64,000 bases of DNA from Candidatus Latescibacterota bacterium (lineage in GTDB: Bacteria > Latescibacterota > UBA2968 > UBA8231), in the NCBI GenBank assembly GCA_965208105.1, contig OZ242318.1, positions 4,096,001 to 4,160,000 of the forward strand, given 5' to 3'. A model generated the notes under the pieces. It saw only the letters and a program-made list of their open reading frames with translations. It was not told the DNA's origin and did not search any database. The position numbers were made by a program, and so were the translations under genes. The first letter of the stretch is position 1. Each line of letters starts with the position of its first letter. Positions 6,923 to 9,116 of this stretch are shown here, piece after piece.

Positions 6923-7390
6923 ATGGCTGCTGTTTTCCACATTGCGGATCCGGTGGTCACAGGCGACCGATTGAAGTCCCTGCACCGGGACGAGAATGAG
7001 GTGTGGATCCACCCTGAGTCGGTTATCACCCCGACGGCTTGGGACTATATCCGCGAGCGGCGCCTCAGAGTCGTTCGGGACAGCAGGGAGCCACCCGCCG
7101 CCGAGCGGGAAACAGAGGCACTGGTCGGAAACCAGCTGTTGCAGGAAGGCCGGTGCCTGCAGCCCGGCCGATCCTGCGGCTGCCACGGCGACGAGTTCGG
7201 ATCGGGTTTCGTGGAGCCTGCATCCTGCCGGCAATGCGCCATTTTCCTCTTGCAGCGGGAGGGCAAACCCAACGCCGGCTGTGAGGGATGCAACCGCGCC
7301 GGAAGCGAGGGGAAGGATCTGGAAGCATTAGTGGGTCGGATTACCGACCAGATTTTTGCCCGCCTCGGTGAAAAACTGGGGGCAGGCTGA
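6923..7390 (+). CDS. BMC-associated Cys-rich hypothetical protein with C-terminal encapsulation-like helix
   Basis: N-terminal VITPTAWDYIRERRL segment, seven Cys in the centre, C-terminal DLEALVGRITDQIFARL; TGATG overlap with the next gene. Confidence 0.75.
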   Translation: MAAVFHIADPVVTGDRLKSLHRDENEVWIHPESVITPTAWDYIRERRLRVVRDSREPPAAERETEALVGNQLLQEGRCLQPGRSCGCHGDEFGSGFVEPASCRQCAIFLLQREGKPNAGCEGCNRAGSEGKDLEALVGRITDQIFARLGEKLGAG

Positions 7391-7974
7391 TGGGCCAGGC
7401 AATCGGCATGATCGAGGTTGAAGGGGTGGCGGGGATCGTTCTGGCGGCCGATGCGGCCTGCAAGGCGGCCGAGGTGGAACTGTTGGGCTGGGAGTCCATC
7501 GGAGGCAGGACCGCGGTCTTCTTCGGGGGCTCCGTAGCCGCCGTCGCCGCTTCTCTGCAGGAGGGAGAAGAGGCGGCCGGCGAGGTGGTGGAGGAGGTGG
7601 TCGCCGCGCCCCTGAACCAGCCGGTCCCGGCTTGCAGAGAGTTCATCTCCTTCCCACCAGATGGTGGACTGGAAGCTTCTCCCGGAGCCCTGGGGCTGAT
7701 GGAGGCGAGAGGCTATGGAGCCCATGTCCGTTCCATCGACGTCATGGCCAAGGCCGCGGCGGTCAGGGTCTTTCGAGTGCTCAGCGTTCACGATCGGGTG
7801 GTGTGCACCCTGATTCAGGGCAATGTCGGTGCCGTGCAGGAGGCCATCGCAGTTGGCAGGGAGCTGATTGAGTCAAGTCCGTACTTTCGATGCTCCGCCG
7901 TCATCCCGCATCCTGATCCCCAGGTTCTAAAGGCCTTCGGGCAGGCGGGTTCAAGGCGATCATGGCACGGATAG
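7390..7974 (+). CDS. BMC shell protein with two divergent tandem BMC domains
   Basis: AIGMIEV..DAACKAAEV..GSVAAVAA and ALGLMEA..DVMAKAAAV..GNVGAVQEA..IPHP. Confidence 0.88.
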   Translation: MGQAIGMIEVEGVAGIVLAADAACKAAEVELLGWESIGGRTAVFFGGSVAAVAASLQEGEEAAGEVVEEVVAAPLNQPVPACREFISFPPDGGLEASPGALGLMEARGYGAHVRSIDVMAKAAAVRVFRVLSVHDRVVCTLIQGNVGAVQEAIAVGRELIESSPYFRCSAVIPHPDPQVLKAFGQAGSRRSWHG

Positions 7975-9116
7975 GTGCTCTGGGCATCGTGGAAACGCGC
8001 GGGATGGCCGCTCTGACCGCCGCCTCGGACTCCATGCTCAAGTCCGCGGATGTTCGCCTCTGCGGCCGTCACGGCATCGGCTCGGGTTGGGTCGCGGTCG
8101 TGGTGGCGGGGGAGGTGGCTGCCGTACAGGTAGCGGTGGACGCAGGCCGACTCGCGGCGGAAAGATACGGCGAGCTCGTGGAAGCGGAGGTGGTGGTGCG
8201 GCCCCAGATGGAGGAAATGGAAGACATGCCCCACCGGGAGGGGATGGCCGCGGCGTCCGGAGAAAGCTCCGGGGCGCTGGGAATGCTGGAGACAAGGACC
8301 CTGGCTCCCCTCATACAAGGAGCGGACGCCATGGTCAAGGCTGCCGCGGTGGAGCTCGGCGGGTGGAGCTCAATCGGCGGTGCCCTGGTGCACCTCGTGG
8401 TGCGAGGCGAGGTCGTGGCGGTGCGCACCGCCCTGGAGGCGGGCCGCGGTGCGGCAGCCAGGACGGGAGAGGTCTACGCGGCCCTGGCGATTCCCCGCCC
8501 CGCCGCCGGGGTGGAGAAGCTTTTTCCGGCGGCCGTGCCTGGAGAGCCGATTGAAGCGGGGGCGCTGGGAATCCTTGAAACGGTGGGTTACGCGGGAGCG
8601 GTCGGGGGCGGCGATGCCATGGTCAAGACCTCCCCGGTGGAGATCCTGCGCCTGAGCGGCGCCAGCGGAGGCCGCATAGCCGTTCTCGCCCATGGCCGGC
8701 TGGACGCCGTGCAGGCGGCCATGGAGGCCGGCGCCTCGGCGGCCCGCCGGTCGGGAGAACTGGACAACGCCTGCATCATCTCGCGGCCCGCGCCCGAGGT
8801 CATATCGCGTTTCGGGGGCGCTGGTCCCGCTTCCCGCGCTTCCGCCGGCCAGGCCCTGGGTTTGATCGAAACGCGCACTGCGATTGGCCTGGTCAAGGCG
8901 GTGGACCAGATGGTCAAAGCTTCCCAGGTGGAATTCGAGGGCCGCTACAAGGCCGGGTATTTCCTTACCGCCGCCGTGGTGCGGGGGGATGTGGGCGCCG
9001 TGCGCTCCGCGTTGGACGCCGGGGCGGAGGAAGCGCGTCGATACGGCGAGTTGGTGGCGGCGCAGCTGATTGCAAATCCACTGGCGGACCTGGAAGGCCG
9101 CCTGCCCCACCGTTGA
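7962..9116 (+). CDS. BMC shell protein with four tandem BMC domains
   Basis: 384 aa; ALG(I/M/L)xET repeats start at about aa 5, 104, 200 and 297, each with DxMxK and Gx(V/L)xAV. Confidence 0.9.
   Translation: MARIGALGIVETRGMAALTAASDSMLKSADVRLCGRHGIGSGWVAVVVAGEVAAVQVAVDAGRLAAERYGELVEAEVVVRPQMEEMEDMPHREGMAAASGESSGALGMLETRTLAPLIQGADAMVKAAAVELGGWSSIGGALVHLVVRGEVVAVRTALEAGRGAAARTGEVYAALAIPRPAAGVEKLFPAAVPGEPIEAGALGILETVGYAGAVGGGDAMVKTSPVEILRLSGASGGRIAVLAHGRLDAVQAAMEAGASAARRSGELDNACIISRPAPEVISRFGGAGPASRASAGQALGLIETRTAIGLVKAVDQMVKASQVEFEGRYKAGYFLTAAVVRGDVGAVRSALDAGAEEARRYGELVAAQLIANPLADLEGRLPHR

Follow-up and report, generated by a model that had tools for sequence, protein, structure and literature searches.

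We investigated a pair of adjacent genes for bacterial microcompartment (BMC) shell proteins in a 64,000-nucleotide (nt) stretch of the genome of a Candidatus Latescibacterota bacterium, hereafter the window. Coordinates are window positions on the plus strand unless another locus or strand is named. The first gene, D (7390..7974), encodes a protein of 194 amino acids (aa) and 20.0 kDa with two PF00936 domains, D1 (7399-7605) and D2 (7687-7914). The second gene, Q (7962..9116), encodes a protein of 384 aa and 38.8 kDa with four such domains, which were placed by a whole-genome PF00936 scan at 7977-8204 (Q1), 8274-8501 (Q2), 8562-8789 (Q3) and 8853-9080 (Q4).

A two-domain gene overlapping a four-domain gene

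Translation showed both frames to be open throughout, over 384 aa across 7962-9116 (+) for Q and over 194 aa from 7390-7974 (+) for D. The Pfam model PF00936 (gathering cut-off 24.5 bits) matched Q in four stretches (E 4.6e-77, 254.4 bits) and D in two (E 2.1e-32, 111.3 bits), and this pattern of a four-domain protein beside a two-domain one is far beyond chance. The original prediction, made from the letters of the window, had described four tandem BMC domains at a spacing of about 97 aa behind a two-domain gene; both domain counts were borne out, with the domains of Q starting at residues 5, 105, 201 and 297, at spacings of 100, 96 and 96 aa. The 13-nt overlap that it had noted between the two genes is likewise present, the ATG of Q at 7962 lying 13 nt before the end of the D stop codon at 7974. 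On re-reading, the edge motifs (DAACK and DVMAK in D; DSMLK, DAMVK, DAMVK and DQMVK in Q) and the pore loops (IGGR and VHDR in D; IGSG, IGGA, ASGG and AGYF in Q) agreed exactly with those listed there.

All the domains of D and Q are non-permuted, matching Pfam positions 1-75 in order and each showing the succession beta-alpha-beta-beta-alpha-beta in the AlphaFold2 model. This secondary-structure order is that of BMC-H, and the circular permutation of the BMC-T(dp) and BMC-T(sp) types was found in no domain of either protein. D taken alone has exactly two non-permuted PF00936 domains, as BMC-T(s) requires, and Q, with four, does not fit that type.

Conservation of the gene pair

We identified orthologues of Q (E<=1e-60, no stops, one per genome) in 81 of the 168 species genomes of the phylum, each as one full-length match without stops, with partial matches found at contig ends only. 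Orthologues of D (E<=1e-30) were present in 84 of these genomes, including all 81 with Q. In 80 of the 81, D immediately precedes Q on the same strand; in the one remaining genome (G081), assembled into 820 contigs, the two genes fall on separate contigs, and the three genomes with D but not Q are assemblies of 660-980 contigs each. In all 45 phylum loci examined, D and Q are separate open reading frames in the order D-Q, and the distance from the D stop to the Q start runs from -13 to +14 nt in 44 of them and is 175 nt in the remaining one. Every complete copy of Q from these loci (44/44) has its four domains in one frame.

Scanning metagenome contigs gave 48 loci; 43 hold a Q-family gene, and in 32 of the 43 its 5' end is included. 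D, or the end of D, is directly upstream in each of the 32, and Q is a single four-domain frame in 30. Of the other two, L103 has an in-frame TAG at 853-855, in the linker between Q2 and Q3 at a position where the consensus is Leu, followed by a TTG, and L119 changes frame between Q3 and Q4 (about 4126-4163); each may reflect an error, gene decay or a genuine split. Among 5.8 billion proteins searched, at least 200 clusters matched the Q family; the best 120 of the 200 scored matches have lengths of 366-404 aa and share 53-93% identity with Q over 92-100% of its length. Some of these homologues carry source labels of metagenome-assembled genomes of Latescibacteria or Gemmatimonadetes, and the sequencing runs with Q-family contigs are recorded in the database under habitat labels of sponge and marine metagenomes. 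Thus, with 81 of 168 phylum genomes and many marine and sponge-associated metagenome contigs, the D-Q family is not rare.

These counts bear directly on the objection that separate BMC genes have been misread as one by assembly or annotation. The open frame in all the complete phylum copies and in 30 of 32 metagenome loci, together with the lengths of the best 120 protein matches, refutes this reading, as does a contig of 11,065 nt from an independent study that runs unbroken across 6900-9200 and differs by 32 substitutions without any gap; we consider an artefact to have practically no probability. Misassembly, which the original prediction had wished to see checked, is accordingly excluded by this contig and by the Q orthologues of the phylum. 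The same holds for its question of whether four-domain homologues always adjoin the two-domain gene, to which the 80/81 genomes, 45/45 phylum loci and 32/32 metagenome loci give the answer. None of the observations that it had named as speaking against itself was made: an in-frame stop between the second and third domains, as two separate two-domain genes would have, was seen in 1 of 30 + 44 complete relatives (L103), and D was never missing beside Q where the sequence allows checking.

Contigs from two metatranscriptome libraries of different studies cover parts of D and Q (7617-9140) at 90-95% likeness; they hint weakly at expression in related strains but are not proof of transcription, and stretches that lack such contigs carry no meaning.

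Domain classes and a predicted six-domain tile

The six domain positions of the pair correspond to six orthologous classes, with 61-72% identity within a class across genomes versus 24-41% between classes, and each class was monophyletic in FastTree and UFBoot-supported trees. The domains of D are the most divergent, with 24-37% identity to any other domain and 64-68% among orthologues. Q1 and Q4 cluster with BMC-H and with the first domain of T, the canonical two-domain shell protein of the same locus, and D1 and Q2 are unplaced. The classes D2 and Q3 come out as sisters (FastTree 0.84, UFBoot 93) and have in common an invariant Gly-Tyr after the first strand, which hints at an old duplication of three domains. 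A full period-three origin (D1 with Q2, D2 with Q3, Q1 with Q4) was only partly seen.

The pore loops are class-specific and almost invariant across relatives: S-I-G-G-F/Y in D1, T-V-H-N/D-R-V in D2, G-V/I-G-S-G-W in Q1, F/S-I-G-G-A-L in Q2, I-G/A-S-G-G-R in Q3 and K-V-G-Y-F/Y-L in Q4. Of the edge motif DxxxK, the Asp is present in 268 of 269 domains and the Lys in all 269. The part consulted of the 2021 catalog of BMC loci (Sutter 2021, PMC8217296) gives KAAN and (P/A)RPH as the motifs of bulk BMC-H facet proteins. Both are found in T and BMC-H of the locus and are largely missing from D and Q, whose domains do not carry the basal facet BMC-H motif of that catalog although their lysine is invariant. 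The consensus after the edge Lys is AAD, AAA or AAP in all six classes and KAAN in none, and the window's own copies of D and Q have no Asn at that position. The PRP motif retains its Arg in 28 of 45 Q1 sequences and 40 of 45 Q3 sequences, and in at most 7 of 45 in D1, D2 and Q2; in Q4 Arg is not among the four commonest residues listed at this position. Since the facet motifs are largely missing and the edge lysine is kept, the D-Q pair looks, from its residues, like a specialised tile that would still make tile-to-tile lysine contacts.

The same residues could be taken to mean that D and Q are not a facet tile but a non-shell scaffold or cap, for instance an assembly nucleus that binds cargo through a common N-terminal domain of the flanking proteins (described below). 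The absence of KAAN from every domain and the keeping of the PRP Arg mainly in Q1 and Q3 would agree with this, as would the presence of the common N-terminal domain in the products of both flanking genes. The lysine that pairs across the tile border is present in all 269 domains, an invariance that would be difficult to account for if tiles did not touch, and we regard a scaffold or cap as very improbable.

A four-domain chain cannot by itself close a six-membered ring. The AlphaFold2 model of the Q monomer (predicted local distance difference test, pLDDT, 91.2; predicted template modelling score, pTM, 0.90) is one rigid arc, and its neighbouring domain pairs superpose on 6NER, a synthetic tandem fusion of BMC-H, with template modelling (TM) scores of 0.90-0.92 to the target and root-mean-square deviations of 2.1-3.4 Å over 185-186 columns. 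In a fold search no solved chain covered more than TM 0.45 of the Q model, and none of the 62 PDB sequence matches has more than two BMC domains. We modelled Q in complex with D from alignments of 121 and 45 rows, with three unrelated proteins as controls. The ipSAE (interaction prediction score from aligned errors) was 0.83, 0.83 and 0.85 for Q with D, passing a mark that 58 of 80 complexes of solved structure attain, against 2 of 110 mismatched pairs, and 0.20 for the best of the three controls, a gap that says nothing on partner specificity since the controls were unrelated proteins and not T or BMC-H. The runs share at least 90% of their contacts, with a partner pLDDT of at least 86. In the model D2 (residues 107-138) contacts Q1 (residues 7-91) and D1 (residues 7-85) contacts Q4 (residues 305-362), so that the predicted ring is closed in the gene order D1-D2-Q1-Q2-Q3-Q4; residue 139 of Q, in the Q2 pore loop, also contacts D. 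A Cys/His metal site at the junction of D2 and Q1 was considered and dropped, as Cys34 of Q lies outside the predicted interface.

Among the options set out in the original prediction, the first, in which Q forms a 1:1 pseudohexamer with its neighbour and so has an asymmetric pore, is the one that the results support. We consider it probable, mainly on genomic evidence, that D and Q form a heterodimeric pseudohexamer of six different domains, the assembly itself being predicted. We favour this 4+2 ring because D and Q co-occur, are adjacent and translationally coupled, fall into six position-specific domain classes, and give a complex model in which D touches both Q1 and Q4 and closes the ring.

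Several points weigh against the 4+2 ring, beside the silence of the controls on partner specificity. Both the binding of D to Q and the closing of the ring are model predictions, and the score of the complex may be a memory of the abundantly solved BMC rings. When mutual information was computed over 67 D-Q pairs (about 31 effective), the predicted contacts showed no signal, and the top covarying pairs fell in the poorly aligned tail of D; the lack of signal comes mainly from the fact that most of the contact positions are invariant, and the result is uninformative, neither backing nor contradicting the model. A profile search of 1.84 billion representatives gave 8018 matches, and among the best 150, which were inspected, there was no six-domain fusion that would join D and Q as a Rosetta stone. 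The strict upkeep of the 4+2 split is itself unexplained. Finally, the aldolase gene that follows Q in relatives, and that points to a role for the tile, is not found next to Q in the window (gap 9117-9151), nor is there a close copy in the rest of the genome, where the best match has 29-30% identity. Long frames of 590-791 aa around Q in some relatives, considered as six-domain fusions, proved to be only GC-rich frames, with D in another frame in each.

In an alternative arrangement, three Q chains would build two linked pseudohexamers of 12 domains in all, such as (Q1Q2)x3 next to or on top of (Q3Q4)x3, and D would be a BMC-T-like homotrimer of its own. In its favour, chains of four domains first fill complete rings at a total of twelve, D has as many domains as a standard BMC-T, and the stop of L103, exactly in the Q2-Q3 linker and followed by a TTG, may mean that a split into halves is tolerated; double-layer BMC-T trimers are moreover known from the consulted part of the 2021 catalog (Sutter 2021, PMC8217296). 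However, this leaves the constant presence and translational coupling of D unexplained, and Q1Q2, Q3Q4 and D were never found apart in the 45 + 43 loci examined. The three linkers are alike in length, as the spacings show, the monomer model is one rigid arc, and the domains of Q are not permuted, unlike those of the known stacking BMC-T. We therefore judge a double tile unlikely.

Alternatively, Q might be an open arc of four-sixths whose gap is filled variably by D, by T or by two BMC-H monomers, giving tiles of variable composition. The locus also encodes T and BMC-H, the complex controls held no BMC competitors, and mixed hexamers of paralogous BMC-H are known for CcmK3 and CcmK4. Yet the domains of D, so far from all others and so well conserved among orthologues, fit a dedicated partner, and three satellite loci (L078, L082 and L083) pair Q with D and not with T or BMC-H, so that we think variable partners distinctly unlikely. 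The CcmK3-CcmK4 heterohexamers of beta-carboxysomes, which are proposed to tune permeability, are a precedent for a hexagonal tile made from more than one gene product. They consist of single-domain paralogues in variable ratios, whereas in a D-Q tile covalent linkage and a dedicated partner would set the composition and order.

Under the 4+2 ring, D and Q would be made together from their coupled genes and would pair 1:1 to give a single heterodimeric pseudohexamer of about 59 kDa, with the ring order predicted to follow the gene order. The tile would sit in a facet of a metabolosome shell, around core enzymes comprising an acylating aldehyde dehydrogenase and PduL, using the conserved edge lysine of all six domains, and its central pore would be lined by the six different conserved loops. 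It would be a specialised tile, probably of low copy number, rather than bulk facet material, and most likely a conduit or docking site for the module of aldolase and Cys-rich protein described below. More tentatively, and in our estimate doubtful, D and Q may make a natural, fully asymmetric tile in which six domains in fixed order provide six edges and a lopsided pore and give the tile a unique, addressable place in the shell. Such a tile might sit beside a vertex, or be the single entry port or docking site for the aldolase module. It would perhaps descend from a duplicated three-domain unit, as D2 and Q3, the sister classes with the common invariant GY, would stand opposite each other in the ring, and complete BMC proteins of three domains do occur elsewhere.

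Several known systems resemble parts of this arrangement. In the BMC-T(s) proteins PduT and Haliangium ochraceum BMC-T1, several fused PF00936 domains form a six-domain hexagonal tile, and D has the same domain count; PduT and HO-5812 were among the sequence and fold matches. These proteins are threefold-symmetric homotrimers with no more than two kinds of domain, whereas D with Q would give six kinds and no symmetry. 6NER was both the best sequence match (E 8e-38) and the best fold match, and neighbouring domains of Q are placed as its fused neighbouring BMC-H protomers are; unlike Q, it is man-made, with two identical domains in a homotrimer. To our knowledge, every BMC tile described so far is either a homo-oligomer, with one or two domains per chain, or a loose mixture of paralogues, so that its pore and edges show three- or sixfold repetition.

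The catalog of BMC loci distinguishes, in the part consulted, six types of shell protein, none with more than two domains (Sutter 2021, PMC8217296). We found no three- or four-domain BMC protein described in the literature searched, including the consulted portions of PMC8217296, PMC4207490 and PMC3909097; Supplementary Data 2 of PMC8217296 may list the locus type. The fold and the role as shell proteins are known, and the chain architecture and the asymmetric heterodimeric tile that it implies are new within the structures and literature searched.

If the 4+2 ring is correct, a tile whose six positions each have a coding sequence of their own and stand in fixed order would break this symmetry, a pore could be made from six different loops, and each edge could prefer a different neighbour. 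This bears on the placing of rare tiles, on the selective entry of large or charged substrates and on the anchoring of cargo, and for shell engineering it would offer a natural scaffold with six individually addressable positions.

In the best 150 of the 8018 profile matches we counted one four-domain representative, of the Q family, no protein of five or six domains, and 14 complete proteins of three. The latter, representatives of 50% clusters with lengths of 283-330 aa, are P0129, P0131, P0136-P0142, P0149, P0169, P0172, P0177 and P0179; two such chains could also fill a hexagon, as 3+3. Another split of the same six domains was ruled out for them, as they are not orthologues of any D or Q class. 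A single-protein pattern scan additionally gave 20 loci as candidate four-domain relatives, which proved to be runs of separate one- and two-domain BMC genes (in Bacteroidales, Photobacterium and others) and were left out of every count.

The metabolosome locus and the aldolase module

The window locus is a metabolosome locus, in which genes for BMC-P, BMC-H, T, an acylating aldehyde dehydrogenase (AldDh) and PduL all lie within 4.6 kb upstream of D-Q. The BMC-P vertex protein (3389..3694, +) is the sole PF03319 match in the 4.85-Mb single-contig genome. It is followed by T (3807..4376, +; 189 aa), a tandem two-domain BMC protein with KAAN and IPRPH in its first domain, and by an 87-aa BMC-H (4391..4654, +) with the canonical IPRP edge motif. 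The AldDh is of the BMC type (4736..6163, +; NF011927, 663.9 bits, cut-off 403), and the PduL-type phosphotransacylase (6172..6858, +) matches PF06130 with E 8.9e-66. Directly upstream of D, here and in relatives, is the gene of a Cys-rich protein of 155 aa with 7 Cys (6923..7390, +) that has no Pfam or NCBIfam family. Downstream of Q lies a flavin adenine dinucleotide (FAD)-dependent oxidoreductase (9152..10243, +; PF01266), which is ThiO-like but under the cut-off of that model; in relatives it is also downstream of Q, mostly after the aldolase. The usual order in relatives is AldDh, BMC-P, PduL, T, BMC-H, Cys-rich protein, D, Q, aldolase and FAD oxidoreductase. The shell genes for T (3807-4376), BMC-H (4391-4654) and BMC-P (3389-3694) were missing from the list of the original prediction.

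The gene that follows Q in relatives encodes a class I aldolase of the dihydrodipicolinate synthase/N-acetylneuraminate lyase (DHDPS/NAL) family with an N-terminal extension of about 70-90 residues, which scores under every NCBIfam equivalog cut-off. It is found after D-Q in 40 of the 44 loci from the phylum and in 39 of the 43 from metagenomes, and L033, L034, L045 and L116 have the same shorter form without aldolase as the window. The Cys-rich protein and the aldolase have a common N-terminal domain in their first 50 or so residues (window 6923-7090; L080 10639-10806; L083 10872-11039; L082 8314-8481), in which I7, V11, T13, L17, T36, P37 and D41 are invariant. No family was found for this domain or for the Cys-rich protein in Pfam at E up to 10 or in NCBIfam, and a search of the Atlas with the domain gave matches below 0.9 only, among them a EutQ-fragment cluster at 0.79, which is a lead and not a finding. 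The domain may serve for encapsulation or docking. The aldolase would be the aldehyde-producing signature enzyme of the metabolosome, and the D-Q tile a dedicated port or anchor for it; the D-Q family marks a metabolosome type with an uncharacterised aldolase.

In L078, L082 and L083, which come from other families of the class and were fetched with flanks of 9-10 kb on either side, D, Q and the aldolase stand apart from other BMC genes. They recall the satellite EUT modules of the catalog, which, in the part consulted, consist of EutABC with an EutL-type shell protein and are thought to add a substrate and an entry pore to an existing shell (PMC8217296). In both cases a shell protein and a signature enzyme move together as one module, but the architecture of the shell protein and the enzyme differ, and a matching function for D-Q-aldolase is a putative one. 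In the satellite locus L083, the flanks (1674-6263, 6391-8811 and 12084-13046) include a 1529-aa FtsX-domain protein, an 806-aa protein without family and a CehA/McbA-type metallohydrolase, and in L082 they include an aldehyde:ferredoxin oxidoreductase (4119-5990).

We additionally noted differences in the number of shell genes outside the D-Q pair. The window has one BMC-P gene, and the relatives L079, L080, L081 and L084 have two or three in the locus. A second BMC-H gene of the same genome is a lone satellite outside the window, far from the main locus (G000:C1:2831290-2831517, minus strand).

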